The notes: a model not told the origin generated them from the letters alone. DNA of 64,000 bases from Candidatus Heimdallarchaeota archaeon (GCA_021399395.1 JAAFKJ010000001.1:30165-94164); one strand, 5' to 3'; positions 24,083 through 40,987 are shown, counted from the first letter of the stretch. Numbers and translations are program-made.

Positions 24083-24655
24083 GTGAGTAAGATGAAATCA
24101 TGTCCTTTCTGTGAAAGGTCTATTCCAGAAATTTCTGTTTTTTGTGCTTATTGTGGTAAAAAGGTTAAAGATATTGAAGTAAGCGAATCAAAACAATCTA
24201 ATTTTGAATCAGGCTTTCAAAAATCTTTGAAGAAAATGAAGAAGCAAGTATCAACCTTTGTTTCAGGTTTAAACACCAAAGTTGAGAATTCTGAATCTCT
24301 CTCTTTTGTTAATAAACAAAGGATTCTTGGCATTCTCAATCAGCTTCAGATTCAAGACCAAAGAGAACTAAGTGAAGATAAAGAAGAACTAGCTATTTGG
24401 GTTGAGAAAGTAGAAGAAGCTATATCAGGAGACAAATGCATTATTTGCTTGCAAGAATTCGAAGTTAAAGAAAATGAAGAGCTAAATGTTATTTTATGTC
24501 CTTCATGCAATTATGCTGGCCATCCAAACCATTTCATAACTTGGTTAGACACAAAAAACAACTGTCCTATGTGTAGAAGCGAGTTAACTAAAAAGAGCTT
24601 ATTACGTGGTCATTTAACAATCAAAGAAGAGCAATTGACTTTCATACAAGATTGA
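24083..24655 (+). CDS. Zinc-ribbon plus RING-finger protein (putative E3 ubiquitin ligase)
   Basis: N-terminal CPFC..CAYC; C-terminal CIIC-x16-CPSC-x4-HPNH..W..CPMC. Confidence 0.8.
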   Translation: MSKMKSCPFCERSIPEISVFCAYCGKKVKDIEVSESKQSNFESGFQKSLKKMKKQVSTFVSGLNTKVENSESLSFVNKQRILGILNQLQIQDQRELSEDKEELAIWVEKVEEAISGDKCIICLQEFEVKENEELNVILCPSCNYAGHPNHFITWLDTKNNCPMCRSELTKKSLLRGHLTIKEEQLTFIQD

Positions 24656-24669
24656 ACCTTCAAGAATTA

Positions 24670-25473
24670 TCATTGGGAGTTTTTCTTTTCTCTCATTTCC
24701 AATTTGTATTTTTTCAGGAGATTTTTATATTCTTCTGCTTTTTGTCCCGGATCATCAGAATAAACAATTGGACCTCCAACACAGATCATTGCATTGTCAT
24801 CAAAATTGTAAATTACACTTTTTACGATCAGGTGTTCGCTCCCATAAATAGGTGTTAAGGCAAGGATTTTCGATCCTATTGTTTCTTTCATTTTCCTAAC
24901 ATCTTTAACATCGATATGCTCTGCATTCCCTATCCAAAATCCATCTACTTGAGCTTTCTTACATCTCTCAGCGACATATAGATAGAGAGGTTGTTCACTT
25001 ATGGTAGCAATCTTATAGAACATAGATTCTGGATTCGATAACAAGGTAAGAACAATTATTCCTAGTTTTCTTTGTTGAGCAAGAAGTGATGCCTTAGCTA
25101 TATTAGCACTAAAAGGAGAAAATGTAAATGCATCAAAATTCTCTTCTTTGAACCAAAAAATCGCGGAATCATTTGAGGTGTCAATGTCACCTAGTTTATG
25201 GTCAATTATTGAAAGCATATTATTCTGGTGAATCAGAATATTGATTGATCTTATTTCATCAGATGTTAATCCGATTAAATATTGTCTATTAAGCTTGATT
25301 GCACAACTGTAAGGAGCAACATTTTTGATTATCCTTTTCATGAAATTAACTCTATCATCATCTAACATTACAGACCTTGAACGTTGAGATGGTAGAGCTG
25401 GATCTAAACTCACACAGAGCAAACTATCTTTGCTCTTAGAGATTGCAAGATATTGCTGGAGAAACTGTGACAT
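24670..25473 (-). CDS. OMP decarboxylase paralog with degenerate phosphate-binding site
   Basis: Clearly alignable with pyrF at 40988-41767; retains DHKLGDI but lacks PGVGAQ and GR motifs. Confidence 0.8.
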   Translation of the reverse strand: MSQFLQQYLAISKSKDSLLCVSLDPALPSQRSRSVMLDDDRVNFMKRIIKNVAPYSCAIKLNRQYLIGLTSDEIRSINILIHQNNMLSIIDHKLGDIDTSNDSAIFWFKEENFDAFTFSPFSANIAKASLLAQQRKLGIIVLTLLSNPESMFYKIATISEQPLYLYVAERCKKAQVDGFWIGNAEHIDVKDVRKMKETIGSKILALTPIYGSEHLIVKSVIYNFDDNAMICVGGPIVYSDDPGQKAEEYKNLLKKYKLEMREKKNSQ

Positions 25474-25543
25474 CTATTAATTCCCATGGAGTTCATAGGA
25501 ATCAACGTTTATAATTTTTATTTTTGTTTTCTCCATCATTTTT

Positions 25544-25559
25544 TTGCAGTGAAATGCAA
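25544..25559. promoter_or_regulatory. Palindromic TTGCA-N6-TGCAA candidate operator (copy 1)
   Basis: TTGCAGTGAAATGCAA between the divergent pyrF-like gene and pyrB. Confidence 0.65.
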
Positions 25560-25619
25560 TAAAAACCCCTTTTTTCCTAAGAAATCGCATGATTTATAAC
25601 TGAAAATTTCTTTACTGAA

Positions 25620-26552
25620 TTGGAAGATACGAGAATGAATCTCGAACACTTATTTACAATAAGAAGAATGTCCAAAAATCTTATGGAGGACATTTTCGAT
25701 TTAGCTTCTTCTATAGAAGAAAAACCGGATTCTTTTGCTGAAAAATGCAAAGGAAAAATACTAGCTGCTCTCTTTTTTGAACCAAGTACCAGAACAAGAT
25801 TATCCTTTGAAAGCGCTATGTTAAGACTTGGAGGACAAATTCTTGGGTTCTCAAGTGCAAAAGTAAGTAGTTCATCTAAAGGAGAGAGTATCGCTGATAC
25901 CTTTAGAATGTTAAATCACTACGCGCACATAGCAGTAATTCGGCATTACATCGAAGGGATTGGAGAGATTGCTAAGGAATTTGCTACAATCCCAATGATA
26001 TCTGGAGGTACAGGAACACAAGAACATCCGACTCAAGCACTGCTTGATCTTTATACCATAAGGAAGGAACTAGGAAAGGTAGACGATATAACGATTGGAA
26101 TCATGGGAGATTTACTCTATGGAAGAACAATACCCTCTCTTCTTTTTGGTTTAGCTAAATATGATAATGTGAAAGTTCATCTAATTTCTCCACCAGCACT
26201 ACATATACGTAAAAATGTAAAACTGCGCCTGGAAGAAAATGGTCTTGCTTTCAGAGTAACAGAAAATCACAAAGAAGTAATAGATGAACTAGATGTGCTG
26301 TATGTGACACGCTTACAGAAAGAACGATTTCCTGACCCAACAGATTATGAGAGACTAAAAGGAGCATATCAGATCCGTAAATCTGATTTGAGAAAAGCAA
26401 AAGATAGCATGATAATTTTGCACCCTCTTCCAAGAGTAAGTGAGATTCCTTTTGAATTGGATGAACTAAAATATGCTAAGTATTTTGACCAAGCAAAAAA
26501 TGGAGTATGGGTACGAATGGCTCTAATTCTTAAATATCTAGGAGTGGATTAA
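25620..26552 (+). CDS. pyrB: Aspartate carbamoyltransferase catalytic subunit
   Basis: FFEPSTRTRLSF, HPTQALLD and HPLPR. Confidence 0.97.
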   Translation: MEDTRMNLEHLFTIRRMSKNLMEDIFDLASSIEEKPDSFAEKCKGKILAALFFEPSTRTRLSFESAMLRLGGQILGFSSAKVSSSSKGESIADTFRMLNHYAHIAVIRHYIEGIGEIAKEFATIPMISGGTGTQEHPTQALLDLYTIRKELGKVDDITIGIMGDLLYGRTIPSLLFGLAKYDNVKVHLISPPALHIRKNVKLRLEENGLAFRVTENHKEVIDELDVLYVTRLQKERFPDPTDYERLKGAYQIRKSDLRKAKDSMIILHPLPRVSEIPFELDELKYAKYFDQAKNGVWVRMALILKYLGVD

Positions 26553-27023
26553 ATGAATGAAGATAAGAATAAATTGATTGTAAGAAAAATAGAGAATGGA
26601 ACAGTGATTGACAGAATTCCTCCAGGTAAAGCTTTGCGCATACTCGAGGTTTTAGGAATAGATGCAAATTACCCATATACAGTTGCACTCGCTATACGTG
26701 TTCTTTCCAAAAAAATGTCTCTTAAAGATGTAGTAAAAATCAAAGGTAAGGAATTAACAGAAAATGAAGTTCATAAGCTCTCATTTATTGCTCCAGGAGC
26801 ATCTGTAAATATCATTCAGAATTTCGAGGTTCAGAGAAAAATACAGTTAGAAATTCCTGACCATGTTGAAGAATTTATCAAGTGTCTTAATCCAAATTGT
26901 GTTTCTAATTCCCATGAACCCATAACCTCATCATTTGATATAATTTCTAAAAAACCTTTGATTCTTAGATGTATCTACTGTGATAGAGTTATGGAGGACA
27001 AATATCTAAGTGGAAAACTATAG
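26553..27023 (+). CDS. pyrI: Aspartate carbamoyltransferase regulatory subunit
   Basis: IENGTVID; zinc site CLNPNC...CIYC. Confidence 0.96.
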   Translation: MNEDKNKLIVRKIENGTVIDRIPPGKALRILEVLGIDANYPYTVALAIRVLSKKMSLKDVVKIKGKELTENEVHKLSFIAPGASVNIIQNFEVQRKIQLEIPDHVEEFIKCLNPNCVSNSHEPITSSFDIISKKPLILRCIYCDRVMEDKYLSGKL

Positions 27024-28271
27024 GTAGGTACCAATGTCTTTTCTGTAGAAAAGATTCCCTTTTATTTGTGTAATCTTCCTATCATTTTCAATTTTAGCAG
27101 ATTCCAGGTCATCTCCCTTTGTTACAAGAGCTATAGCTCTACTGGATGTTGTTCTGATGGTGCTTTTATCTCGATAAACTGAAGCATAAAAAATATCCTT
27201 ATTTATGGCTGGATCAACCTCCACCGGTTCCTCTTTTACAGGATTTTGTGGATATCCTTGAGGAACTAGATAAGTACATACGGTAGCTTGTTTCTGAAAC
27301 TCTGCTTTTGATAAATTCCCGTCTATTATTTGAGAAGCAATTTGCAGGAAATCAGTTTGTAATAATTTTAGAACATTTAGTGCTTCTGGGTCACCAAATC
27401 TTACATTATATTCAATTAAAAATATACTATCTTCCGTTTTCATAAATTGTCCATACAGAATCCCTTTGAATTTTTCACCTGTGTTCTGATTTAATGCTTT
27501 CAGGGTTTTCTTTATTATATTCAGCGCATCCTTGTAATCCTTCTTTGAAAGGAATGGTAAATTGTGATCAGGAAGACTATATGATCCCATGCTTCCAGTC
27601 AAGGGTCCTTCCTCATTCTCGTATGCTCTTTTATAATCTCTTACCAAAGGCATAGGTAGAATGTTTGAACCATCTGTAAAAACCTGTAAGGAGAATTCTT
27701 TACCCTTCTTCTTCTCTTCAATCAAGTATTCACCTTCGCGGTTAATTAAGGTTTTAACGTACTTTGTTGCTTCATGAATATTTGTTAAATGATCACCATA
27801 AACTTTTACACCCTTACCCCCAGTTAATCCATCGGGTTTGATGACAAAATCAGTTCCAAATTCATCTACAGCAACATCAAGATCCTCAACTGATTTACCA
27901 ATCATATAAGATACATTTCCAGGAACATTATAAATGTCCATCAAGTAACGAGTAAAAATCTTGCTACTTTCAATTTTTGCTACATTCTGTCGAGGACCAC
28001 ATGTTGGAATCCCTAGTTTATCTTCTAGATAATCAGTAATGCCATTTGCAAGAGGATTTTCAGGACCAATGATCGCAAAGTCTACATTTCTGTATTTCTT
28101 TAATTTCTCAAAATTATTTAGATCTCCAATACTAAATTTTTTTGATAAATCTGCAATACCAGGATTCTCTCTAGACATATATGAAAAAAGTTTGGCATCA
28201 TTCTCTACAATCTTCATTGCAATGGAGTGTTCTCTTGCCCCATTTCCTACAAGTAATACTTTTAACCCCAT
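27018..28271 (-). CDS. purD: Phosphoribosylamine-glycine ligase
   Basis: VGNGAREH, IGPENPL, GGKGV and EYNVRFGDPE. Confidence 0.96.
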   Translation of the reverse strand: MGLKVLLVGNGAREHSIAMKIVENDAKLFSYMSRENPGIADLSKKFSIGDLNNFEKLKKYRNVDFAIIGPENPLANGITDYLEDKLGIPTCGPRQNVAKIESSKIFTRYLMDIYNVPGNVSYMIGKSVEDLDVAVDEFGTDFVIKPDGLTGGKGVKVYGDHLTNIHEATKYVKTLINREGEYLIEEKKKGKEFSLQVFTDGSNILPMPLVRDYKRAYENEEGPLTGSMGSYSLPDHNLPFLSKKDYKDALNIIKKTLKALNQNTGEKFKGILYGQFMKTEDSIFLIEYNVRFGDPEALNVLKLLQTDFLQIASQIIDGNLSKAEFQKQATVCTYLVPQGYPQNPVKEEPVEVDPAINKDIFYASVYRDKSTIRTTSSRAIALVTKGDDLESAKIENDRKITQIKGNLFYRKDIGTYL

Positions 28272-28273
28272 GT

Positions 28274-29671
28274 TTAGACCTCTTCATAGTGGCTTCTGCT
28301 TACTAATTCTCCATTCAAGTATCTTATCCGTATTTCTTGTGCATGTTCAGTAGGATAACTACCTGAAAGACATGCAGTACATAAGTCAGAAAATCCGATA
28401 GATTTTTTCAAAGATTCAATGTTTTGATAGTATAATTCATCCACATCCAGAATTTGTTTCATTTCTTCAATTTTGTATCCGGAAGCGATCAGTTCATCAT
28501 CAGTAGGAAAATCAATTCCATAATAACAGGCAAATCTAATAGCAGGACAAGTGACAGCTAGATAGATCTTTTTTGCACCTAGTTTTCTAAGGTCCTTAAT
28601 GATTTTCTGGCTTGTTAATCCTCTTACAATGGAATCATCTACAACAAGGATATTTCTATCTTTAATGAAAGTTGGAGTGTAGAGATATTTTCTCTTAGCT
28701 ACGCTTGTTCTCTCTTCCTTACTTTTCATAATGAAAGTTCTCTGAAGATATCTGTTTTTGATAATTGCTTCTCTAACCGGGATGTTGAGAACCTCTGATA
28801 GACCTTGGCTTGCAGGTCTAGATGTATCTGGAACAGGTACAATGAAATCAATTTCAAGTTCAGATTTCTGAATTCTATGTCCTAACTCTCTACCAAGTTC
28901 TAACCTTACATCATACACTAACCTCTGTTCAATATATGAACATGGATGTGCAAAATAAACAAACTCAAACATACAATGAGCATGATCACGTTGAACTATA
29001 CTGGTATGTTTAACATCGTTTTTATTGATAAAAACTAATTCACCAGGTTTAACATCTTCGAATTTCTCTATTCCTAAATTTTGAAGAACGACGCTTTCTG
29101 ATGTAACTAGAGACACATTTTCAAACTTCCCCATTACTAGAGGTCTCAAACCTCTTGGATCTCTAAATGCAAACAATTGATCATTAAGAATACCAATAAT
29201 TGAATAACTTCCATCTATTGATTCCATAAATGCTCTTACTGCCGCTTCAATATCTCCTTTCATTTTATTAATTTGCATCCCTAAGAAATCAACAACAAAT
29301 CTAGCATCTGATTCGTATGATTGTTGTGTTAGAGAGGAGAGATTGGTAACATTTCCATTATGTACAATCGACAAGCTTCCAGATTCTGTTTCAAATGAGA
29401 ATGGTTGTGCATATGTTTCTATATTGGAACTATCGGTTCTTGTACCAAAAGTAGGATATCGTGTTGCACCAAGTAGAGATCTAGTTTCTATTTTCTCATC
29501 TATTTCAAGTAAATCGGGATAACTATCTGATTTAGAAGTAATCAGACTAGCTGTGGATTCATCATACCAAGCTAAACCACTGGCATCCTGACCTCTGTGT
29601 GTGAGCATCTGAAGCAGTATTCGGCCTTGTCCCAAGGTTGTTAATCCTTTGATTCCTAAAACTCCACACAT
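28274..29671 (-). CDS. purF: Amidophosphoribosyltransferase
   Basis: N-terminal MCG, HRGQD, HNGN and VDDSIVRG; Fe-S cysteines (CMFE, CYYG, CTAC). Confidence 0.96.
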   Translation of the reverse strand: MCGVLGIKGLTTLGQGRILLQMLTHRGQDASGLAWYDESTASLITSKSDSYPDLLEIDEKIETRSLLGATRYPTFGTRTDSSNIETYAQPFSFETESGSLSIVHNGNVTNLSSLTQQSYESDARFVVDFLGMQINKMKGDIEAAVRAFMESIDGSYSIIGILNDQLFAFRDPRGLRPLVMGKFENVSLVTSESVVLQNLGIEKFEDVKPGELVFINKNDVKHTSIVQRDHAHCMFEFVYFAHPCSYIEQRLVYDVRLELGRELGHRIQKSELEIDFIVPVPDTSRPASQGLSEVLNIPVREAIIKNRYLQRTFIMKSKEERTSVAKRKYLYTPTFIKDRNILVVDDSIVRGLTSQKIIKDLRKLGAKKIYLAVTCPAIRFACYYGIDFPTDDELIASGYKIEEMKQILDVDELYYQNIESLKKSIGFSDLCTACLSGSYPTEHAQEIRIRYLNGELVSRSHYEEV

Positions 29672-30277
29672 TTATTCCACTATCCTAGCTTTATTACTAT
29701 ATACCTGTATTTTCCCTAAAGAGAAGAGTGAAATTGCTTTAGGTAGTAACACATGTTCTTCTCTCAAAATCCTATCAGCAAGTTCTTTCTCTGAATCCTC
29801 ACTGTATACCTCAACACATTTCTGCAGAATAATGGGTCCTTCATCAACTGTTTCAGTTACAATATGAACAGTACAGCCTGAGATTTTCACACCAAAGTCT
29901 AATGCTTGTTTTTGCGCTTTTAGCCCAGGAAAAGAAGGAAGTAGGGAGGGATGTATATTGATGATTTTGTTCTTATACTTAGATATAAAATTCGAGGATA
30001 AGATCTGCATGAATCCTGCGAGAACTATGAACTCAATTTTATTGTGTTCAAGTATTTCTAAAATTTCGCTCTCTTGTTCACAATAATCAAGATTCTTTTT
30101 ATCGACAATAGCTGTTTGTTTGTGACTTCTTTGAGCAATTTCTAATCCTTTTGCTTCAGGATTGTTTGATAGTACTAAAACAATTTTAGTTTTCCCCAAG
30201 CTCTTCTCTTCTTCTGCTTTCAGAATAGCTTCAAGGTTTGTTCCTCTTCCAGATATTAAAACAGCTGTTCTCATCAT
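29672..30277 (-). CDS. purN: Phosphoribosylglycinamide formyltransferase
   Basis: SGRGTNL, INIHPSLLP and VDEGPII. Confidence 0.96.
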   Translation of the reverse strand: MMRTAVLISGRGTNLEAILKAEEEKSLGKTKIVLVLSNNPEAKGLEIAQRSHKQTAIVDKKNLDYCEQESEILEILEHNKIEFIVLAGFMQILSSNFISKYKNKIINIHPSLLPSFPGLKAQKQALDFGVKISGCTVHIVTETVDEGPIILQKCVEVYSEDSEKELADRILREEHVLLPKAISLFSLGKIQVYSNKARIVE

Positions 30278-30278
30278 C

Positions 30279-31313
30279 TCACCTCGTAAATATCACATTA
30301 TAGTCTTGAATTTTAACAATAGGATCCGTGATAATCTCACCGATTATTAGCGAATCAAAGTGTTTTGAAAGAGTTTCGAGAGCTTTTTGAGCATTATTTT
30401 TGGAAACAATGACAACGAAGCCTATACCCATGTTGAATATGGAGAACATTTCTTGGTAGTCTATATTCCCTACAGATTGAATCTCATGAAATATTTGTGG
30501 GATGTTGCACCATTTGTCGATTTGAAAACCAAGATTTGTTATTCGAAATAGTTTCTTAAAACCTCCACCTGTGATATGAGCAAGTCCATTTATTTCGCAA
30601 TTTTCTGATAAGTCTTTAATTGCTTCAGTGTATATTCTTGTAGGAATTAGCAATTCCTCTCCTACATTTGTTCCCCATGGAAAACTTTCATTGTATTCAT
30701 ATTTAATAGATAAAACTTTTCGAAGTATAGTAAAACCATTAGAATGAATCCCACTACTTGTTATCCCTATGATTACATCTCCAACTTTTATTTTAGAACC
30801 ATCTACAATTTCTTTGATATCAACTATTCCGAGTGCAGTACCAGCAAGATCAAAAGAATTGATGTTAGTTGATAGAAGCTCTGGTATTTTCGCCAGCTCA
30901 CCTCCTATCAGAGGTATTTTTGCCAGCTCACAACCTTTCAAAATTCCTTGCATGATACCATCTATAACATCTTCTTGAAAGTCTGAAACTGCTAGATAAT
31001 CAACAAAAGCACTTGGTTGAATTCCCATTGCTAGAAGATCATTAACATTCATTGCAACACAATCTATACCCACAGTATCAAACTTTCCAGTTTTTTGGGC
31101 TATAAGCAGTTTAGTTCCAACTCCATCAGTTGCTAAGGCCAGTCCATAATCTCCAAATTTAATCAGATTAGCATAATGACCTTCTTTAGATACAACATTT
31201 CCAAGTTCAAAGCTACTTTTCACATACTTGTTGATATTCTTCAAAATCCTAGCTTCTTTAGATAAATCTATTCCAGCCTCAGCATAAGTATTAGGTATAT
31301 TCTTTTCAGTCAT
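30279..31313 (-). CDS. purM: AIR synthase
   Basis: TDGVGTK, AMNVND, SSGIHSNG and HITGGG. Confidence 0.96.
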   Translation of the reverse strand: MTEKNIPNTYAEAGIDLSKEARILKNINKYVKSSFELGNVVSKEGHYANLIKFGDYGLALATDGVGTKLLIAQKTGKFDTVGIDCVAMNVNDLLAMGIQPSAFVDYLAVSDFQEDVIDGIMQGILKGCELAKIPLIGGELAKIPELLSTNINSFDLAGTALGIVDIKEIVDGSKIKVGDVIIGITSSGIHSNGFTILRKVLSIKYEYNESFPWGTNVGEELLIPTRIYTEAIKDLSENCEINGLAHITGGGFKKLFRITNLGFQIDKWCNIPQIFHEIQSVGNIDYQEMFSIFNMGIGFVVIVSKNNAQKALETLSKHFDSLIIGEIITDPIVKIQDYNVIFTR

Positions 31314-31332
31314 TGAATTCCATCTCCCATAA

Positions 31333-31731
31333 TTATCTTACATTATTGAAATTGATAAGCTTAAGAATTCGAATCGATAGATATGCAGCATTTTCTCCGT
31401 TATCAATCCCTACTGTTGCAACAGGTACCCCTTTAGGCATCTGAACCATGGACAATAGTGCATCCATCCCATTCAATGCTGCCGACACTGGAACCCCTAT
31501 TACTGGTTTTTTTGTCAAAGATGCTACAACTCCAGGTAGAGCTGCTGCTAAACCAGCTATGCAAACGAAAATATGTGCTTTAGAATTTTCTACTTTAACT
31601 ACTAATTTATCGTGATCTCTATGAGCAGAAATATAGCTCACTTTGAAATCGATTGAGTGTTTTTCCAAAACACTTGTAACTTTTTTAACTATTTTTTCAT
31701 CACTTTTGCTTCCCGCAATTATTTCTATCAT
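31333..31731 (-). CDS. purE: AIR carboxylase / N5-CAIR mutase
   Basis: GSKSD, SAHR, PVIGVP and [11 protein letters not shown]. Confidence 0.95.
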
Positions 31732-31732
31732 A

Positions 31733-33910
31733 TTATTCCTCCATAAATCTTGAAATCGCTTTTGACCAGCTTTCCCTTAGTTCTTTCAGATCAATACTAA
31801 TCTCATCATCAATTCTAATTTCAGGTGTAGAAATTGTTTTTCCGAGAATCTTATAATCGTCATCTTTCTTCAAATTCTCTTTAATATACTCTAGTTTTGA
31901 TTGTGATATTTCTACAACATATCTAGTTGGAGCTTCTGCAAAAATAAACTCTTCAATGGATAGATTCTCCTCTTCTAGAACATTGTTTAAAGATAATTCC
32001 ACACCAATATTTTTATCAAAAGCCATTTCAATGAGAGATGTAATTAGCCCCCCATTTGATATATCGTGGCAACTTAAAATGAGTTTTTCATTATTTAATT
32101 TCTCGATAATCTGCCTTGATTTCATTTCTTTATCGAAATCATAAGTTGAGATTTTTCCCTCTATTTTACCATGATTATATCTCAGATATTCAGAACCATT
32201 CAAGTTTCCATCATTAAATCCAATCGAGATAATTATGCTATCTTCACTCTGAAAACTGTTCTTGATAAGTTGATTTGGCTCTTCAATTATTCCAATCATA
32301 CCTATTGTGGGTGACGGATTAATGCGATCCTTCTTTCCAGCAATTGAAGATTCATTATAGAATGAGACATTCCCACCAACTATCGGTAATGAAAAATCCT
32401 TAGAAAATTGTCCCAATCCTTTTACAGCTTCTACAAATTGCCAATACGAATCTGGGTTTTCTGGATTACCAAAATTTAAGCAATCGACAATAGCTAATGG
32501 TTTGGCACCTACACATACGAGATTCCGCATCGCTTCTGCTGCATTGTTTGCAGTTCCATTGAATGGGTCTAGATAAGTCATGAAAGAATTACAATCCAAA
32601 GATAGGGCTATGTATTTTTCATTTTCCAATTTTAACACAGCAGAATCAGATCCTGCAGCGATTACTGTCTGAGTCTGTACATGTTGGTCATATTGTTGAT
32701 AAACCCAGGATTTATCTCCAATATTTGGTGAAGACAATAGCTTCAAAATCTCTTCTTTGATATTTGGAGAGATTGGCACAGTGTATGATATCTCATCAGA
32801 CACATAATCAGGAATTTCAAGAAGTCTTTCAGGTTCTGGGCAACCTTCAACAACTAGATCTACTGGCAATTCCACGACTTTATTTCCCTCAAAGAATGCG
32901 ATATAATGACTATTGTCTGTAACCTCTCCTATTACTGAAGATTGTAAATCATATTTATCCAAGATTTCGCACACTTTTGATAGTTTCTCAGAATCTACAA
33001 TTGCAAGCATTCTTTCCTGAGATTCAGAAACAAGGATTTCCCAAGGTTCCATGTTTTTCGCTCTTAAGGGAATATCTTCTAATCGTATTATTGCACCAGT
33101 TCCTCCTCGAGAACACATTTCAGTTACACCGCAACTCAATCCACCTCCACCTAAATCCTGCAAACCAGCAAGTAGTTCTTCTTCTACTAGCTCAAGCGTA
33201 GCATCAATGAGGATTTTTTCCATTAGTGGATCCCCGATTTGAACTGCAGGTCTATCTTTCTCGCTTTTATCACTTAGATCCTTTGATGCAAAAGAAACAC
33301 CATGAATTCCATCTCTTCCAGTTGACGAACCATACAGAACGAGGAAACTTCCAGGTTTTGATGCAATACTTCTAACTACTTTTTTCTTATCTATTACTCC
33401 CACACACATTGCATTAACTAAACAGTTTTCTTCAAAAGGTTGAGCAAATTCAACTTCTCCTCCTAAAGTTGGTATTCCGCAACAATTTCCATAAAATGAA
33501 ATTCCTCTCACTACATTTTCAAATAGATGTTGAGACCTCTTAGATTCTAATTCTCCAAATCGAATAGAATCTAATAGTGCTACTGGTCGACATCCTTGAG
33601 AAAGTATATCTCTAATTATTCCACCTACACCTGTTGCAGCACCATCATAAGGTGAAATTGCTGATGGGTGATTGTGACTCTCCAAACCCAAACCAACTAA
33701 AAATCCATCTCCAATATCAATTAAACCTGCACCTTCACCAATTCCCAGTTCTAAGTATGGAGCTTCTGTATTGAATAAATGAAACCACCTCTTAGATGAT
33801 TTATAGGAGCAATGCTCAGACCACATTGCTTCAAATACAGCTATTTCAGCTTCGTTTGGTTCCCTTTCAAGAGAATCTTTAATTGTACCATATTCTTCAA
33901 CAGTTAGCAT
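31733..33910 (-). CDS. purL: FGAM synthase subunit PurL (small type)
   Basis: [28 protein letters not shown] and GGNVSFYN. Confidence 0.97.
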
Positions 33911-34593
33911 GTCAATTCCTCTTTTAAATTTTCAAAAATTATTTTTCCATCTTCTGATCCTAAATACAGAAAGCTGGCTCTTTCGGGATGGGGCATCATG
34001 CCTAACACATTGCCAGTTTTGTTAACTATCCCAGCTATATTTTCCAATGAACCATTTGGATTGCTTTCCTCATTAATTTCCCCCTGTTCATTGCAATAAC
34101 TAAAGGCTATCTGATTATTATTTCCTAGCCTCTGGATGTTCGCTGGTTCGGAATAATAACGGCCTTCATAATGAGCAATTGGGAGCTTGAGTTTTTTATT
34201 TTCCATGCCTTTAAGTAAGGAGCATGAAGTTTGTTCAGTAGAGATATTTACCCACTTGCAGATGAATTTTGTAGAAGTGTTTGTAGTAAGTATTCCAGGC
34301 AGTAATCCTAATTCACAGAGTATCTGAAAACCATTACAGATACCAATTACAAATTTGCCTGATTCAACATACTCTGGAAGTTTTTTTGCTATAGGTGAAT
34401 GAGATGCTATTGCACCTGGTCTTAGATAATCACCATAAGAGAACCCTCCTGCAATTATCAAAGCATCAACTTCTTCTAGAAGTTCAGAGTTATTGGGAAA
34501 GATGTACTCATACCGAAGTCCCAGTGAACTTAAAACCCTAGCTACATCTTGTTCGTTATTTGTTCCTGGAAATTTAGTTATACCAATTTTCAG
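33904..34593 (-). CDS. purQ: FGAM synthase glutaminase subunit PurQ (CTG start)
   Basis: Frame is open 44 codons upstream of the listed ORF to CTG-AAA-ATT-GGT... (KIGITKFPGTNNE); GGFSYGD, GICNGFQ and MMPHPER. Confidence 0.93.
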   Translation of the reverse strand: MKIGITKFPGTNNEQDVARVLSSLGLRYEYIFPNNSELLEEVDALIIAGGFSYGDYLRPGAIASHSPIAKKLPEYVESGKFVIGICNGFQILCELGLLPGILTTNTSTKFICKWVNISTEQTSCSLLKGMENKKLKLPIAHYEGRYYSEPANIQRLGNNNQIAFSYCNEQGEINEESNPNGSLENIAGIVNKTGNVLGMMPHPERASFLYLGSEDGKIIFENLKEELTC

Positions 34594-34598
34594 TTATA

Positions 34599-35582
34599 TC
34601 ACCCTTCGTTAGATGTCTCGAAATATTCCATGGATAACTTGGTTTCTTCAATCAAAGGATTTGAGAGAATTCTGTTGGATATTTCTTGTGTTTTTTTGTA
34701 AAGTGATTCAGAAGGAACGGATGAAAACTTGATACTAGCGTTTTTACCAAGTCTAACTGATTCAATATTCTCATATTCATTCCGTTTTAATGACCTAAAA
34801 GTAACTTCACCGGCTGGGTCGAGAACTGAATCCTTTAGAGAAATCCGAATATTGGTTTTGGTGTTGAACTCTATATTAGGAAGTTCTGTGATTGTTTCCA
34901 ATCTTTCAAGTATATCCTTATAGTGTTGAATGACATCTCCAAGATCTTTTCGATATCTATCCTTATCCTTAATTTCCCCAGTATTAATTTCCCATAACCT
35001 CATTGTATCAGCTGAAATTTCATCTGCTATAATCAGTTTACCCTCATGACTTCTACCAAATTCAAGCTTAAAATCCACAAGTACAAGTGAGATTGACTTG
35101 AATATATTTCTTAGAATATGATTCACTGCTAAAGTAACAGCTTTAATTATAGTTGCATCTTCACCCGATAGGTAGTTCATCAAGATTGCTGCTTCTTCTG
35201 TAATTAATGGATCATGTAATTCATCTTCCTTCAAAAAGAACTCAACTAAAGGTTGATCGAAGTTTGTTCCAATCTCAATCCCATATCTTCTACAAAAACT
35301 TCCAGCAGCTATATTTCTACAAACTATTTCTACGGGAATTATATCGACTTTTTCACAAAGTAAATCTCTACTCGATATACTCTTGAGATAATGTGTTTCT
35401 ATATTATATTCATTCAAAATCTCAAATAGTTTTGCAGAAGTTCGGCAGTTAACTTCACCCTTATTCAGAAGTTCTTCTGTTTTTTCTCCATCAAATGCAG
35501 AAATCGAATCTCTAAAATGGATTTTAACTTCCTTTTCATCCAGAAGTTCTATATCTTTTGCTTTTCCAGAGTATCTCTCCAA
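34599..35582 (-). CDS. purC: PurC (SAICAR synthetase) fused to C-terminal PurS
   Basis: GKAK, DFKLEFG, ADEISADTMRLW and DKDRYR; then PurS motifs LKDSVLDPAG, VRLGK and LSNPLIE. Confidence 0.93.
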   Translation of the reverse strand: MERYSGKAKDIELLDEKEVKIHFRDSISAFDGEKTEELLNKGEVNCRTSAKLFEILNEYNIETHYLKSISSRDLLCEKVDIIPVEIVCRNIAAGSFCRRYGIEIGTNFDQPLVEFFLKEDELHDPLITEEAAILMNYLSGEDATIIKAVTLAVNHILRNIFKSISLVLVDFKLEFGRSHEGKLIIADEISADTMRLWEINTGEIKDKDRYRKDLGDVIQHYKDILERLETITELPNIEFNTKTNIRISLKDSVLDPAGEVTFRSLKRNEYENIESVRLGKNASIKFSSVPSESLYKKTQEISNRILSNPLIEETKLSMEYFETSNEG

Positions 35583-35595
35583 ATTTTACACCACT

Positions 35596-35611
35596 TTGCA
35601 TTATTTTGCAA
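35596..35611. promoter_or_regulatory. Palindromic TTGCA-N6-TGCAA candidate operator (copy 2)
   Basis: TTGCATTATTTTGCAA, 14 nt upstream of the purC start. Confidence 0.72.
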
Positions 35612-35740
35612 ATTAATGACTTTTTGAAACTGGGAATTTTAGTATGTATAGTTTTTAAACTTTCTGGATAATACTATTAAAAAACCTATAGAATCAACTT
35701 AAGGGTTTATGAAAATACACAAATATAAAAAGATAAGTTC

Positions 35741-35756
35741 TTGCACAGTAATGCAA
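35741..35756. promoter_or_regulatory. Palindromic TTGCA-N6-TGCAA candidate operator (copy 3)
   Basis: TTGCACAGTAATGCAA just downstream of TATA-like boxes, upstream of the HTH-PRTase gene. Confidence 0.72.
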
Positions 35757-35805
35757 AACCTTTTCAATGATATGAAAAGGACTATATTGAAAAACAAGTG
35801 ATATT

Positions 35806-36585
35806 ATGTCAAATGCAAGCACACCTGATAGTTATATTGATGCTCAAGAGAAACTAATGACACTTAATCTTCTTCAGATGGCCTTTAAAAAATTCGACAC
35901 TCTTGAAACATGCAGATCATTTCTTCAAGAACATGGGGTTGAGGTTTCTGTTGCAAACCTTTCTAGATATATCAACGGGAAAGCAATTCCAAAATCAAAA
36001 CTCAAAAATTCTTTGCTCAAAGTCCTGATAGACAACAAAGAACTTGGTTTAACAATTAAAGAGCTCATAATCAAACACTTAGATATCAAGACCGATGAAA
36101 CAGGTATGATTACAGTAAACAATACCTATTTGCTAAATGACTCAAAAACCTTGAAAGCGATTTTATTTCTAGCAATCCAACAAGGCATTATTCCAAGAGA
36201 GGTTGATAAAGTGATAACTGCTGAAGTTGATGGAATTCCAATTGCAATGACTCTTGCTCATCTTCTTAACATTGATTGTGTTTATGCAAGGAAGAAGAAA
36301 CCCATTGGTACCTCTGAGTTTCATAGTGAGGATATTATTTCAGCGAATACTAGTAGAATGGAGACAATCTATTTTCCAGATAAATTCATCAGAAAGAATG
36401 AGAGGGTTATAATCATCGATGACATTATTCGCTCAGGTGCAACACAAACGGCACTAGTTAATCTTGTAAATAAATGTGAAGGAATTCCTCTAAAAATCAT
36501 CATACTAACTGGTGTTGGAGGACACTGGGAAAAAACTACTAAATTAAAGTTTACTGATTTCAAAACTCTAGTTACTCTAAAATAA
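35806..36585 (+). CDS. HTH plus phosphoribosyltransferase-domain transcriptional regulator (PurR-like)
   Basis: N-terminal HTH (VSVANLSRYING); PRT motifs TAEVDGIP, YARKKK and IIIDDIIRSGAT. Confidence 0.85.
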   Translation: MSNASTPDSYIDAQEKLMTLNLLQMAFKKFDTLETCRSFLQEHGVEVSVANLSRYINGKAIPKSKLKNSLLKVLIDNKELGLTIKELIIKHLDIKTDETGMITVNNTYLLNDSKTLKAILFLAIQQGIIPREVDKVITAEVDGIPIAMTLAHLLNIDCVYARKKKPIGTSEFHSEDIISANTSRMETIYFPDKFIRKNERVIIIDDIIRSGATQTALVNLVNKCEGIPLKIIILTGVGGHWEKTTKLKFTDFKTLVTLK

Positions 36586-36601
36586 CGGCAGATGGTGTTA
36601 T

Positions 36602-37684
36602 ATGATTCAAGAACTGATAAAACAATATGATTATGAGAACATTAGTGTAGGAGTAATTGGATCCCACTCTGCTCTCGATATATTAGATGGTGCAAAAAAA
36701 ACAAGATTCAAAACCACAGTAATTTGCGAAAAAGGAAGGGAAGAGCCCTATACAAGATTTGATAGGATCATAGATAATTTGATAATTTTAGATAAGTTCT
36801 CGGACATATATTCAATCCAAGAGGAATTAAGAGAAGAGAATTGCATTTTCGTACCAAATCGTTCTTTTGCCGTGTATTGTAATACAAACCGAATTGAAAA
36901 AGAATTTAGAGTGCCTTTGTTCGGTTCAAGAGAACTCCTAAAAGTTGAGGAAAGGGTAGGACTGCACAATTATTATGAAGTACTAGATGCAGCAAAAATA
37001 AAATATCCTAAAACTTTCAAAAATCCAGAGGAAATTGATTGTCCAGTCATATGCAAAATGCCTCATGCTAAACTTGAAGTTGAAAGAGGTTTCTTTGTAG
37101 CAAAAGATAAAGAAAATTTTTTTGAGGAATTCAATAAGCGTGTCGAAAATGGTACAATAAGAAGAGGTGATCTTTCTAAGGCATCGATAGAAGAATTCAT
37201 TTCTGGTGTTACATTCAATTTCAATATCTTTTACTCCCCGATATATAATCGAACAGAATTAATTGGGATAGACCGTCGTTTTGTTACAGATCTAGATGGA
37301 ATTGTACGTTTGCCTGCGGAACAACAACTTCAACTAGAACTTGAAGAAGAAATGAAAGAGATAGGCAACTATGCTGTTACTTTAAGAGAATCAATGTTAA
37401 GACACGTATTTCCAATGGCAGACGACTTCGTTAAAGCAACAAAGAAACTCTATCCTCCGGGCATTATTGGCCCATTTGCGCTTCAAACCATGATAACTAA
37501 GGATTACGAATTCATAGTATTCGATGTATCCATGAGAATGGGTGGTGGAACAAATAGTTTCATGGGGACAGGCAGTCAATATTCAGCTGTTTATTGGGGA
37601 GAACCAATCTCAGCAGGTAAGCGAGTTGGAATGGAAATAAGAAGAGCCGTTGAACAAAACAGATTGCAGTATATTGTAACTTGA
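36602..37684 (+). CDS. purP: Formate-dependent AICAR transformylase (PurP family), paralog 1
   Basis: IGSHSALDI, FVPNRSF, ERGFF and PPGIIGPFALQ. Confidence 0.92.
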   Translation: MIQELIKQYDYENISVGVIGSHSALDILDGAKKTRFKTTVICEKGREEPYTRFDRIIDNLIILDKFSDIYSIQEELREENCIFVPNRSFAVYCNTNRIEKEFRVPLFGSRELLKVEERVGLHNYYEVLDAAKIKYPKTFKNPEEIDCPVICKMPHAKLEVERGFFVAKDKENFFEEFNKRVENGTIRRGDLSKASIEEFISGVTFNFNIFYSPIYNRTELIGIDRRFVTDLDGIVRLPAEQQLQLELEEEMKEIGNYAVTLRESMLRHVFPMADDFVKATKKLYPPGIIGPFALQTMITKDYEFIVFDVSMRMGGGTNSFMGTGSQYSAVYWGEPISAGKRVGMEIRRAVEQNRLQYIVT

Positions 37685-37808
37685 GAGTACTAATAATCGT
37701 AAAAAGAAAATGAAGAATATTCAACATTCAAAGGATTACACTGAAGAATTCTTCGAATGATGTTGAATGTTAGACTAAAGAAATAAAAACAGTTTCAAAA
37801 ACTACGAT

Positions 37809-38813
37809 GTGAATAACTTGATAATCTCAACCATAGGAAGTCATTCCGCACTTCAAATATTATTTGGAGCTAAACAAGAGAATTTCAATACCAAAGTATA
37901 TTGCTTAAAGGACCGAGATAGTCTTTACCGAAGATATCCCGTCGCAAATGAAATAGTCACACTTGATTCTTATGAAGATCTTCTAGAAATTGCTGCTGAT
38001 TCCCAAGAAATTTTTATTCCTCATGGTACTCTGATTGCGGCTCTAGGAGACAAATTAAGGGACATTTCTATACCTATGTTTGGAAATAGAGAGGGGATGT
38101 TGTGGGAGATGAATCGAGCAAAGAATCAAAAACTTCTGGAAACTGCAGGAATTAGAGTTCCTCGAACACTGAAATCTGATGATATCACCGAGTTAGCGAT
38201 CGTGAAATTTCCAGGAGCTATGGGTGGTTCAGGGTATTTTGTTTGCTCCTCCTCTGATGAATTCGATACCAAAATTAATGATTTAGTCTCTCAAAATAAG
38301 ATCTCAGATTATGACATTAAAAATGCCCAAATTCAAGAGTATGTAACTGGAGTAACTATGTATCCCCATTACTTCTATTCTGGGATCTATGAAAGAGTTG
38401 AGATGCTTGGAATAGATAGGAGATATGAAACCAACGTAGATGCGCTAGGTCGATTATCTCAGAACGATCATCCAGTTGAACCCTCATATAAGGTAGTTGG
38501 GAATCAACCTTTAATTGCAAGAGAATCTCTATTACCACAAATCCTAGAACATGGTGATAAATTGAGGGAAGCTTCAACAAATCTTTTTGCACCAGGTTTG
38601 ATAGGTCCATATTGTATAGAAATGGCCATTACATCAGAAGAGATAGTTGCTTTTGAATTTACTAGCAGAATTGTAGCGGGTACAAGTTTGTATGTAAACG
38701 GTTCACCTTATTCAAAGATCTTATTCAATGAAGAAATGAGTATGGCTAAGCGTATTGCAAGGGAGATAAAAATGGCAATGGGGCAAAGAAGGCTGCAGGA
38801 GTTCCTTACATAA
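37809..38813 (+). CDS. purP: Formate-dependent AICAR transformylase (PurP family), paralog 2
   Basis: IGSHSALQI, IPHGT, GAMGGSGYF, IDRRYETN and RIVAGT. Confidence 0.92.
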   Translation: MNNLIISTIGSHSALQILFGAKQENFNTKVYCLKDRDSLYRRYPVANEIVTLDSYEDLLEIAADSQEIFIPHGTLIAALGDKLRDISIPMFGNREGMLWEMNRAKNQKLLETAGIRVPRTLKSDDITELAIVKFPGAMGGSGYFVCSSSDEFDTKINDLVSQNKISDYDIKNAQIQEYVTGVTMYPHYFYSGIYERVEMLGIDRRYETNVDALGRLSQNDHPVEPSYKVVGNQPLIARESLLPQILEHGDKLREASTNLFAPGLIGPYCIEMAITSEEIVAFEFTSRIVAGTSLYVNGSPYSKILFNEEMSMAKRIAREIKMAMGQRRLQEFLT

Positions 38814-38824
38814 AAGGTGATGAA

Positions 38825-40333
38825 ATGGATAAAATCGGAGTATTTGATTTTGGTGGCCAATATTGCCATCTTATTGCTAGAAGGATTAGAGATTTAGGTG
38901 TTTATGCTGAGATAATCTATGAACCTTCTCAGGAGTACAAAGGTTTCATTTTATCAGGGGGACCGGGTAATATCTCTGAAGAAGAAGCACCCCAATTACC
39001 AGAAGAATTCTTCAATGAGGTGGAAGTACCAGTTCTTGGGATATGTTATGGTCATCAAATGATTGCACAGACTTTTGGAGGAAAAGTTGAAAGAGGGAGA
39101 GAAAGAGAATACGGGAAGAAAACAGCCATTCTTGAAAACTCTTCTTCTTTGTTTAAGGGTTTGAATAAGGAGGAACAAGTCTGGATGTCACATTATGATC
39201 AAGTTACGATTCTACCTGATGATTTCGATGTCATTGGTTCAACTGACATCTGTGGAATAGCAGCATATCAAAACATCCACAAAAATATTTTTGGGGTCCA
39301 ATTTCATCCAGAAGTCATTCACACTATAAATGGCACTAAAATTCTTAAAAACTTTTTAGATATTATTGGATGTAAGAGAGAATGGAAACTAAGTCAATGG
39401 GTGGAAAAGAAAATACACGAACTGCAAACAGAGATAGGTTCTAACAGAGTAATCATGGCAGTTAGTGGAGGAGTAGATAGTACAGTAGCTGCTGCACTTC
39501 TAACTAAAGCTAAGATAAACGCTCATTTCATACATGTAGACACTGGTCTCATGAGATTGAATGAATCAGAGGAAGTAGCAAAAATTTTCGAGGATTTGGG
39601 CACGGAAAACCTTCATATTGTAGATGCTAAAAAAAGATTTTTTAAGAGATTAGAAGATATCTCTGATCCAGAATTAAAGCGGAAGATAATTGGAAACCTC
39701 TTTATCGATATTTTTGAAGAAGAATCTGATAGATTAGACAATTTTGATTTCTTAGGACAAGGAACAATATATCCAGATAGAATAGAAAGCGCTCAACCAA
39801 GTAAACATGCAAGTGTAATCAAAACCCACCATAATGTTGGTGGTCTTCCTGAAAGAATGAAGTTAAAATTAATTGAGCCTCTCAATGAGCTTTACAAGGA
39901 TGAAGTCAGAAAAATAGGCGAGATGTTAGGTCTTCCAAAGAGATACATTGATAGACACCCATTCCCAGGTCCGGCTCTTGCAATCAGGATCTTAGGCATA
40001 GTTACTGAAGAGAGAGTGGATATATTAAGAAAAGCTGATGCGATTGTTACACAAATCATAGAGAATAATGGTATTTATGATTCTCTTTGGCAAGTTTTTC
40101 CTGCACTCATCCCTGTTAAATCTGTAGGTGTGATGGGAGATAAAAGAACATATGAATATATCTTAACCATTAGAGCTGTTGAATCAGTAGACGCGATGAC
40201 AGCTGATTGGGCAAGATTAGATTATGATGTTTTAGAAGAAATATCCACAAAGATCATCAATAAAGTAAATGGTGTGAATAGAGTCCTATATGATATCACC
40301 AGCAAACCCCCAGGTACAATTGAATATGAATAA
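38825..40333 (+). CDS. guaA: GMP synthase (fused GATase plus ATPPase)
   Basis: DFGGQY, GICYGHQ, QFHPE, SGGVDS, KTHHNVGG and KPPGTIE. Confidence 0.97.
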   Translation: MDKIGVFDFGGQYCHLIARRIRDLGVYAEIIYEPSQEYKGFILSGGPGNISEEEAPQLPEEFFNEVEVPVLGICYGHQMIAQTFGGKVERGREREYGKKTAILENSSSLFKGLNKEEQVWMSHYDQVTILPDDFDVIGSTDICGIAAYQNIHKNIFGVQFHPEVIHTINGTKILKNFLDIIGCKREWKLSQWVEKKIHELQTEIGSNRVIMAVSGGVDSTVAAALLTKAKINAHFIHVDTGLMRLNESEEVAKIFEDLGTENLHIVDAKKRFFKRLEDISDPELKRKIIGNLFIDIFEEESDRLDNFDFLGQGTIYPDRIESAQPSKHASVIKTHHNVGGLPERMKLKLIEPLNELYKDEVRKIGEMLGLPKRYIDRHPFPGPALAIRILGIVTEERVDILRKADAIVTQIIENNGIYDSLWQVFPALIPVKSVGVMGDKRTYEYILTIRAVESVDAMTADWARLDYDVLEEISTKIINKVNGVNRVLYDITSKPPGTIEYE

Positions 40334-40961
40334 AATGATAAAGGTTAGAAAAATGAAAGCAAATTTGCAAGAACTGACAAAGCAGATTATTAAGCAGGGA
40401 ATTTTGAAGTTTGGCGATTTTACCTTGAAATCAGGTAAAAAATCCTGGTTCTATCTCGATTTAAGATTGATATCATCTTTTCCAGATACTTTTAATTTCG
40501 TAATCAAATGTTATAAAAAGAAATTAAAAGAAATAGGTAAATATGACGCTGTAGTAGGTGTAGCTGTAGCTGGTGTGCCTTTTTCTGCTGTTTTGGGTTA
40601 CACTTTGAACATTCCCTCCTTAATTATAAGGACGCAAAAAAAAGATCATGGTTTGAGGAATAAAATTGAGGGGTTTCTTCCAGAAAAATCAACTATTGTT
40701 CTCATAGATGATTTAATAACGACAGGTTCTAGCAAAATTCCTGGCATACTTGCATTACGTGAAATGGGATATGTTGTAAAAGATATGTTGGTTTTAGTTG
40801 ACCGAAGCCAAGGTCATAGTGGTCAAATTGATCAACTAGGAGTAAAACTTCATTCATTTGCTTCAATTGAGCAGATATTTACAGAAAGCCTACATCTTGA
40901 TGATGACATTTTAGATGAGAAAACAAGAGAAATTATAGCTAAAAATCTTAGAACCGATTAA
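40326..40961 (+). CDS. pyrE: Orotate phosphoribosyltransferase
   Basis: FGDFTLKSGKKS, KDHG and LIDDLITTG; start uncertain (40326, 40335 or 40353). Confidence 0.94.
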   Translation: MNKMIKVRKMKANLQELTKQIIKQGILKFGDFTLKSGKKSWFYLDLRLISSFPDTFNFVIKCYKKKLKEIGKYDAVVGVAVAGVPFSAVLGYTLNIPSLIIRTQKKDHGLRNKIEGFLPEKSTIVLIDDLITTGSSKIPGILALREMGYVVKDMLVLVDRSQGHSGQIDQLGVKLHSFASIEQIFTESLHLDDDILDEKTREIIAKNLRTD

Positions 40962-40987
40962 GCAAGATACCTTCATGAACAAATCCG

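Follow-up and report, generated by a model that had tools for sequence, protein, structure and literature searches.

The window analysed here, a 64,000-nucleotide (nt) stretch of DNA from Candidatus Heimdallarchaeota archaeon (GCA_021399395.1 JAAFKJ010000001.1:30165-94164), contains a cluster of purine and pyrimidine biosynthesis genes in which a candidate operator, the palindrome TTGCA-N6-TGCAA, recurs beside a gene for a candidate regulator carrying a helix-turn-helix (HTH) and a phosphoribosyltransferase (PRT) domain. Genes were called by Pfam and NCBIfam profile matches. The pur operon, purCS(fusion)-purQ-purL-purE-purM-purN-purF-purD (27018..35582, minus strand; Pfam matches), diverges from the candidate regulator gene (35806..36585, plus strand; PF00156, NF006328 and structure prediction), which is followed on the same strand by purP paralogue 1 (36602..37684; PF06849/PF06973, NF009780) and by purP paralogue 2, guaA and pyrE (37809..40961; Pfam/NCBIfam). 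On the other side of the pur operon lie pyrB and pyrI (25620..27023, plus strand; PF02729/PF00185 and PF01948/PF02748), pyrB probably starting at the ATG at 25636, and, diverging from them, a pyrF-like gene for a paralogue of the orotidine monophosphate (OMP) decarboxylase family (24670..25473, minus strand; PF00215, 56 bits; TIGR02127, 53 bits, below its cut-off). These matches confirmed the gene context described in an initial annotation made from the sequence alone, and the Asgard (Heimdall) origin proposed there was borne out by the source names of near-identical proteins and contigs, which point to the Heimdallarchaeaceae.

The exact palindrome occurs only three times in the 64-kb window, at the positions given in the initial annotation: between the pyrF-like gene and pyrBI (operator 1, 25544-25559), in the purCS leader (operator A, 35596-35611), and 50 nt upstream of the regulator ATG (operator B, 35741-35756), 145 nt from operator A. 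Dinucleotide shuffles of the window contained a mean of 0.09 copies, in line with the earlier estimate of fewer than 0.1 chance copies per 64 kb, and 0 of 100 shuffles reached three. In the whole assembly (G000; 2.816 Mb, 82% complete, 291.5 kb of it intergenic), six exact copies were found against 6.2 expected from pentamer frequencies; therefore, the motif is not over-represented genome-wide. The possibility raised earlier, that it is simply common and randomly distributed, thus agreed with the total count but not with the location of the copies, as five of the six are intergenic (0.30 expected) and three fall within the pur/pyr cluster. Raw genome-wide counts are misleading because coding DNA distorts them. 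TTGCA-N8-TGCAA (24 copies) and the inverted arrangement TGCAA-N6-TTGCA (20 copies) exceeded the approximately 6 expected for each, and both were rejected as motifs, all 24/24 and 20/20 copies lying in coding DNA as a codon-phase effect (GCA/TGC codons). In intergenic DNA, the relaxed form TTRCA-N6-TGYAA was observed 15 times against 2.2 expected, and other spacers 0-7 times. TTGCA-N7-TGCAA was found in intergenic DNA five times against approximately 0.3 expected (C7:2168, C21:26285, C93:7523, C125:8015 and C175:870, the C labels being contigs of the assembly); these sites may represent a second factor or a spacing variant.

Footprinting of orthologous promoters, which the initial annotation had proposed, was performed on 19 intergenic regions between purCS and the regulator gene; they span five genera within a single Heimdallarchaeaceae family, with 13 from the genus of the window and 6 from four further genera (two of these 6 genomes are closed). 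Two operator copies were present in 19/19, in DNA that is otherwise barely alignable around the sites. All 13 purCS-bearing genomes of the genus have purCS divergent from the regulator gene with two sites between them, and genome G017, which is without the pur operon, still has both. Over 20 loci the spacing between operators A and B is 141-164 nt, and in these 20 loci an operator lies upstream of the regulator's own gene. The context expected for autoregulation was thereby found in every genome with the purCS/regulator arrangement. Across the 19 regions, the six-nucleotide spacer gave 31 strict matches, other spacers gave 0-2, the five-nucleotide spacer gave none, and shuffled sequences gave 0.064. 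The window shuffles, the intergenic excess and these spacer and shuffle controls together ruled out chance as the origin of the motif. Beyond these regions, purC is preceded by two sites in 3/3 genomes of family f4 (both exact in two genomes, one exact and one with a single mismatch in the third) and by a one-mismatch site in genome G025. In genus g14, purC was found with the query used in 0/5 genomes. In two closed genomes, both of genus g13, the genome-wide exact sites fall at pur loci in 3/3 (G046) and 3/4 (G045) cases.

Alignment of 47 distinct conserved sites revealed preferences outside the search pattern, namely A-T at the spacer centre (positions 8/9; 70/94 each) and T/A at the flanks (positions 0/17; 81/94), with conservation ending one base beyond the palindrome. 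Therefore, the true motif is an 18-bp palindrome, T-TTGCA-nTATAn-TGCAA-A. The resemblance of the three spacers noted in the initial annotation was thus real in part, residing in the central A-T. Judged by comparison among genomes, the palindrome is a real, conserved cis-element of pur promoters.

The purCS promoter has a fixed geometry. Here and below, transcription starts were inferred from TATA and Shine-Dalgarno (SD) positions. In the window, the purCS TATA box (TTTAAAAA; 35652..35659, minus strand) lies exactly 40 nt ahead of operator A, and an SD-like GGTG (35589..35592, minus strand) lies 3 nt beyond it. The box is exactly TTTATTAA in 17/19 regions, operator A follows it after 40 nt in 17/19 and after 41 nt in 2/19, an SD-like motif (GGTG/GAGG type) follows operator A at 1-4 nt in 19/19, and a CAG occurs 19-20 nt downstream of the TATA box in 13/19. 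The usual distance from TATA box to start in archaea is well established, and when it is applied here operator A falls at approximately +18 to +33. As operators A and B lie on either side, the purCS TATA box is bracketed by two operators. In our reading of the f4 purC sequence, a TATA-like box likewise lies between the two sites, approximately 41 nt ahead of the proximal one. Operator B has a TATA-like element 2-20 nt downstream, and two genomes leave just 40 nt between it and the regulator ATG, so that it must abut the promoter there. The earlier statement that both pur-side copies lie at or downstream of transcription starts consequently holds for the purCS copy, whereas the regulator copy is likelier to lie just upstream of its TATA-like element. 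Repression at purCS is likely from this arrangement of sequence elements.

The position of operator A, within the inferred purCS leader transcript and beside the SD motif, could also suit an RNA hairpin, and in genus g13 a palindrome follows the purP1 stop codon with a T-run after it, as a terminator might. The palindrome would then be a structure of the purCS leader or a terminator after purP1 rather than a DNA site. We regard this as highly improbable: neither the pyrB site nor operator B falls within the inferred transcripts, conservation extends to the sequence of the half-sites and not just to their ability to pair, the one-mismatch variants of operator A in g10-g12 (4 loci) leave an A.C mismatch when read in the direction of purCS, and a 5-bp stem is weak.

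The candidate regulator is a protein of 259 residues, predicted by AlphaFold (AF2) with a predicted local distance difference test (pLDDT) score of 92 to consist of a probable XRE-type HTH domain (residues ~7-92) and a type I PRT domain (residues ~100-259). The PRT domain passed the gathering threshold of PF00156 (37.1 against 26.3 bits). Its fold gave template modelling (TM) scores of 0.81-0.85 to adenine phosphoribosyltransferases (APRTs) and a Foldseek E of ~1e-12 to PurR, and the closest sequence match in the PDB is Bacillus PurR (1P4A, 1O57; E 9e-11, residues 129-236 on 127-234). The loop binding ribose/5-phosphate of phosphoribosyl pyrophosphate (PRPP), DD-IRSGAT, is conserved. Databases label the protein adenine or xanthine phosphoribosyltransferase, by likeness. 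The N-terminal domain is less readily placed. Residues 7-92 form five helices, which were also predicted when folded alone (pLDDT 89), and match mostly XRE, Cro and POU-specific domains, with a best structural match to 2O38 (67 residues aligned, root-mean-square deviation (rmsd) 3.1) whose Z of 7.5, being below 8, falls short of a decisive value. A Pfam scan of residues 1-125 with E up to 1 gave HTH_3 (PF01381) at E 0.15, below threshold, and Foldseek with residues 1-99 gave E ~1, with no match at E <=0.001; one homologue (P0057) has a precomputed PF01381 match. The same Pfam scan gave no match to PuR_N, and the PurR-type winged helix implied by the initial annotation is replaced by a DNA-binding domain that most resembles the XRE/lambda-repressor type. 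Within this domain the segment ANLSRYINGKA-PKSK is nearly invariant.

A homodimer was predicted with a score of 0.84 against 0.01 for the best control, with at least 88% of contacts common to three runs and a partner pLDDT of 86 or more; calibration put 20/30 proteins solved as pairs and 1/23 solved as single chains at or above the pass mark. The predicted interface is two-fold and involves the first helix and PRT helix 144-152. APRT and PurR dimers are among the solved structures, and likeness to them may account for the passing score. The 11-bp separation of the half-sites suits a dimer that, as modelled, has two-fold symmetry and carries two HTH units.

Orthologues of the candidate regulator were found in 22/24 genus-mates (51-88% identity) and purC in 12/24, approximately half of the genus being without de novo purine genes. 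Genomes without the pur operon have no purC or pyrB, and purL was found in 0/5 of them. Their locus reads radical SAM (rSAM), orf289, RING, pyrF-like, then the divergent regulator gene, (pyrC), pyrK, pyrD and yfcE, so that the pyrF-like gene stands directly beside the regulator gene. A 10-kb block of pyrBI and pur genes (window 25474-35805) is precisely absent between conserved neighbours, as is a 5-kb block of purP-purP-guaA-pyrE/pyrF (window 36586-41767). The regulator is retained there at 50-74% identity (in one genome, another residue takes the place of the first Asp in the PRPP loop), and the operators are gone except in G017. The loss of the operators together with the pur genes indicates that the operators are tied to those genes.

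Several observations connect the HTH-PRT protein to the palindrome. Besides the site ahead of its gene in 20 loci, genome G047, from another family, encodes a homologue of the ADLSRY type whose gene is preceded at 52 nt by a TTACA-N6-TGTAA site. A homologue was found with the A1 profile in genera g1-g4 and g10-g13, and in 0/8 genomes of g5-g9. Among the homologue-bearing genera, TTRCA-N6-TGYAA is present at purC in g1 and g10-g13, in g2 with one mismatch, in g3 in 3/4 (as TTACA-N6-TGTAA-type sites) and in g4 in 3/3; in g6 and g8, in which no homologue was found, no motif was found at purC. The sequences of protein and site also co-vary: lineages with ANLSRY have G at motif position 3 in 74/94 half-sites, whereas those with ADLSRY (g3 and G047) have TTACA/TGTAA, with A at position 3, in 11/12. 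In family f5, members of NF006328 above its cut-off sit within pur clusters. No other conserved DNA-binding gene was found in the cluster. The adjacent protein, named as the binder in the initial annotation, is thus the best candidate and most likely binds the site, its own upstream site, co-occurrence and co-variation at the sequence level all pointing to it.

Another factor, for example one of the Lrp/feast-famine regulatory protein (FFRP) type, could bind the palindrome instead, the HTH-PRT protein being merely a neighbour that either has enzymatic activity or regulates other genes. A box with TTGCA-type half-sites is reported to be the target of Ss-LrpB from Sulfolobus (PMC1802622, PMC2715240). 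The persistence of the protein without sites in genomes lacking the pur operon, the sites of family f4 that are not adjacent to a homologue and the database name of adenine PRTase would also fit. The Ss-LrpB box has a spacer of 5 nt, a spacing absent from the 19 regions, and both the pattern of presence and absence and the co-variation of N/D with G/A point to the HTH-PRT protein. We therefore rate another binder as distinctly unlikely.

We consider it probable, with moderate confidence, that the palindrome is the operator of a small purine-centred regulon of the Heimdallarchaeaceae, in which an HTH-PRT dimer would act by repression and autoregulation with a 5-phosphoribosyl ligand. In the proposed mechanism, a symmetric dimer of the 35806-36585 protein would bind the 18-bp palindrome with each HTH contacting one TTGCA half-site. 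Operator A, fixed at 40 nt past the TATA box and directly ahead of the ribosome-binding site, and operator B, ~150 nt away and ahead of the regulator gene, would together enclose the purCS TATA box, and binding would most likely repress the pur operon and autoregulate the regulator. A 5-phosphoribosyl ligand in the PRT pocket, either PRPP or a purine nucleotide, would relieve or enforce this action. Additional operators would act at the purP1/purP2 junction, on purP2-guaA-pyrE, and, in this genus only, at pyrBI/pyrF-like.

The purP1/purP2 site is a candidate fourth operator, with one mismatch (a TGTAA half), at 37664..37679, where it overlaps the final purP1 codons approximately 130 nt upstream of purP2. 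Of the 10 loci of the genus that reach this junction, 9 have a site there, which is non-coding in 4 of them. The two closed g13 genomes carry it as an exact, non-coding site directly after the purP1 stop codon, with a second relaxed site 113-115 nt beyond. A T-run follows the g13 junction site. The distribution of sites therefore places purCS, the regulator gene and purP2 in the core of the regulon.

At pyrB, sites with at most one mismatch are present in 8/10 loci of the genus and a two-mismatch version in the other 2. The site was found in 0/3 loci of g10 and g12 and in 0/13 loci of families f3 and f4, and g13 has only a two-mismatch relic. By this comparison, pyrBI is a recent recruit to the putative regulon, gained where it was inserted beside the pur operon. 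Sites predicted more widely by the initial annotation were not found: purB and prs have no site at up to two mismatches, purA has only a two-mismatch half-site match, and the promoter of the pyrD-K-C-F operon has no site, and searches of the 82%-complete assembly yielded no guaB, carB or xanthine/uracil permease (Xan_ur_permease). Co-control of purine and pyrimidine genes, as first proposed, is accordingly likely for the pur promoters, would extend to pyrBI/pyrF-like in this genus only, and fails for pyrD-K-C-F. Downstream of pyrE, pyrF, pyrC, pyrK and pyrD lie on the minus strand.

The placement of the pyrB site is compatible with a different mode of action. Operator 1 is upstream of both divergent candidate TATA-like boxes, inferred from the sequence, that of the pyrF-like gene (25508..25515, minus strand), 28 nt away, and that of pyrB (25592..25599, plus strand), 32 nt past the operator; this promoter block is kept in relatives, where the site lies 22-33 nt upstream of both boxes. 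Classic repressors do not bind at such a position. Six loci have ~22 nt between the site and the CTTTTATAAC-type box, and two have 32-33 nt. The two classes differ by one helical turn, which would keep the site on the same face of the helix. The same operator and protein might thus form an activator or dual regulator that represses purCS and activates pyrBI, purP2 and perhaps its own gene, balancing purines and pyrimidines. GfcR, the only studied archaeal HTH-PRT regulator, is reported to be an activator (PMC10838023). Upstream position is nevertheless no proof of activation, because Bacillus PurR is reported to bind upstream of the promoter and yet to repress (PMC8789054), and the purCS geometry, with its TATA box between two operators, fits repression. 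On balance, we hold activation or dual control to be unlikely. A bolder form of this proposal, in which the HTH-PRT protein would be an independently evolved archaeal counterpart of PurR, seems to us equally doubtful. Such a protein, an XRE-HTH joined to an APRT-like sensor of the PRPP or purine-nucleotide pool, would act in two modes through a single palindrome: it would stop purine synthesis by clamping the purCS TATA box between operators ~150 bp apart, and would switch on pyrBI and purP2-guaA-pyrE from helically phased upstream sites, thereby setting the balance of purines and pyrimidines transcriptionally.

The following observations weigh against the purine-centred repressor that we favour. 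Three of the four operators are upstream of the nearest TATA-like box (pyrB 22-33 nt, purP2 ~100 nt, regulator 2-20 nt), and archaeal sites upstream of the TATA box are equally typical of activation and repression. Of the loci without the pur operon, seven keep the regulator without a nearby site, six of them shown in full synteny, and the few exact sites elsewhere in those genomes adjoin unrelated genes (DUF4062, aldo/keto reductase, chalcone-synthase-like). The co-occurrence of protein and site amounts to approximately one independent loss event, kin not being independent. In family f4, sites are present at purC while the distant homologue (28-31% identity) is encoded elsewhere, without a site of its own. 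Among 64 distant homologues in other archaea, the motif was found upstream of 0/64 and a pur/pyr neighbour beside only 5. In the assembly itself, 12 further intergenic relaxed sites outside the cluster adjoin unrelated genes and are unexplained; they lie on contigs C2, C17, C31, C132, C146, C148, C157, C170 and C179, and their neighbours, with no nucleotide link, include an amidohydrolase/AsnA-like pair, an alpha/beta hydrolase/DJ-1 pair, AOR, a zinc-ribbon protein and L7Ae.

The relaxed sites on C148 and C157 are paired, 206 nt and 60 nt apart, respectively. The exact sites of the assembly outside the cluster lie after an aminotransferase gene (C66), before a gene for a membrane protein without a Pfam match (C148) and inside an MMPL gene (C176). 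The C148 sites are absent at 13 loci of 30-50% identical homologues. The sole exact site of G045 away from pur loci (C1:1157993) is flanked by an MMPL transporter gene and by an SIS gene of 6-phospho-3-hexuloisomerase-like type, which scores 101 bits with TIGR03127 and so misses its cut-off of 160; the SIS/MMPL pair with an exact site also occurs in G000 and G001, there inside the MMPL coding sequence. The 64 distant homologues share no palindrome upstream. Several of them, from Bathyarchaeia and Hecatellales, have GC-rich N7 inverted repeats 130-175 nt upstream, which might be stems of upstream tRNA genes.

Some neighbouring genes of the cluster also deserve description. The purC and purS genes form one fusion of 327 residues (SAICAR_synt and PurS; 34599-35582, minus strand), and this fusion is kept across the family. 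The two OMP-decarboxylase-family paralogues (24670-25473 and 40988-41767) are 47-54% identical to each other's orthologues; the pyrF_sub2 cut-off is reached only by the second (40988-41767), and genomes without the pur operon keep only the first. A protein of 190 residues (24083-24655, plus strand) with a RING-finger and zinc-ribbon signature (PF13639, 27.7 bits) is encoded in conserved synteny beside the pyrF-like gene.

Asgard archaea are the closest prokaryotic relatives of eukaryotes, and, to our knowledge, almost nothing is known of gene-specific regulation in them. The present cluster offers a candidate triple of a 259-residue protein, an 18-bp operator with up to four copies in the window, and a defined target set comprising the pur operon, purP2-guaA-pyrE, the regulator gene itself and pyrBI, the last in one genus. 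The fixed order of TATA box, 40 nt, operator and SD motif suggests how a bacterial-type HTH factor may interfere with eukaryote-like initiation machinery. The loss of purine synthesis and operators in approximately half of the genus, with retention of the protein, is a natural experiment. The annotation of proteins labelled adenine or xanthine phosphoribosyltransferases would, on this sequence-based reading, be corrected. If the bolder proposal of clamping at purCS and activation elsewhere were true, Asgard archaea would have their first defined transcription-factor/operator/regulon triple, and PRT enzymes would have been recruited convergently as sensors in Bacteria and Archaea.

Among protein families, the same HTH and PRT architecture is found in NF006328 / PRK08558, named adenine phosphoribosyltransferase, which is the best NCBIfam match of the candidate regulator (residues 15-240 on profile positions 9-218 of 238). 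The score of 129.7 bits is below the cut-off of 184, whereas other Heimdall families hold members at 190-225 bits; the model also matches proteins of Haloferax volcanii and Sulfolobus acidocaldarius, used as control genomes. The recognition helix is ANLSRYINGKA here and VLNRYIKGHVLP in the NF006328 / PRK08558 proteins. By these scores, the candidate regulator is a divergent, below-cut-off clade of a broad uncharacterised archaeal HTH-PRT group. The open literature yielded no description of an NF006328 / PRK08558 member as a regulator and no account of this operator, this clade or an archaeal purine regulator of HTH-APRT type, subscription journals and supplementary files being beyond reach.

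Bacillus subtilis PurR (TIGR01743; PDB 1O57, 1P4A, 7RMW) resembles the candidate regulator in combining a DNA-binding domain with a non-catalytic-looking type I PRT domain, in its dimeric state (here predicted), and in the PRT effector domain of PurR/APRT/xanthine phosphoribosyltransferase (XPRT) type with a PRPP loop. PurR is reported to act on its own gene and on the pur operon from two inverted-repeat boxes in each control region, with PRPP as inducer and (p)ppGpp as anti-inducer (PMC8789054), and sites at matching places are found here. The two differ in the N-terminal domain, which is a PuR_N winged helix in PurR and probably XRE/lambda-like here, in operator sequence, and in the archaeal TATA/transcription factor B (TFB) promoter context. 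With TIGR01743, whose cut-off is 258.7 bits, the score was 58.7 bits and came only from residues 125-231, the PRT part, and whole-chain superposition on PurR was poor (rmsd 13). By N-terminal domain and score, the candidate regulator falls outside the Bacillus PurR family.

GfcR of Haloferax volcanii is likewise an HTH and PRT transcription factor that is reported to bind phosphorylated metabolites and its own promoter (PMC10838023). It differs as an activator of sugar catabolism and by a PRT domain of the PyrE-like clade; the candidate regulator scored 17.9 bits with the GfcR family NF045507, whose cut-off is 300.

At the level of the operator, several features are shared with Ss-LrpB, which is reported to use an AT-rich palindrome with TTGCA-type half-sites at an archaeal promoter. 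That palindrome is a 15-bp box with a 5-nt spacer, against 6 nt here, and its binder belongs to the Lrp/FFRP family and has no purine connection. The box of Sulfolobus solfataricus is TTGYAWWWWWTRCAA. At the level of function, Escherichia coli PurR is a dimeric LacI-family repressor of pur and some pyr genes that acts via a 16-bp palindrome. It is a functional analogue of the candidate regulator, from which it differs in its LacI/periplasmic-binding-protein fold, its hypoxanthine and guanine corepressors and its bacterial promoters.

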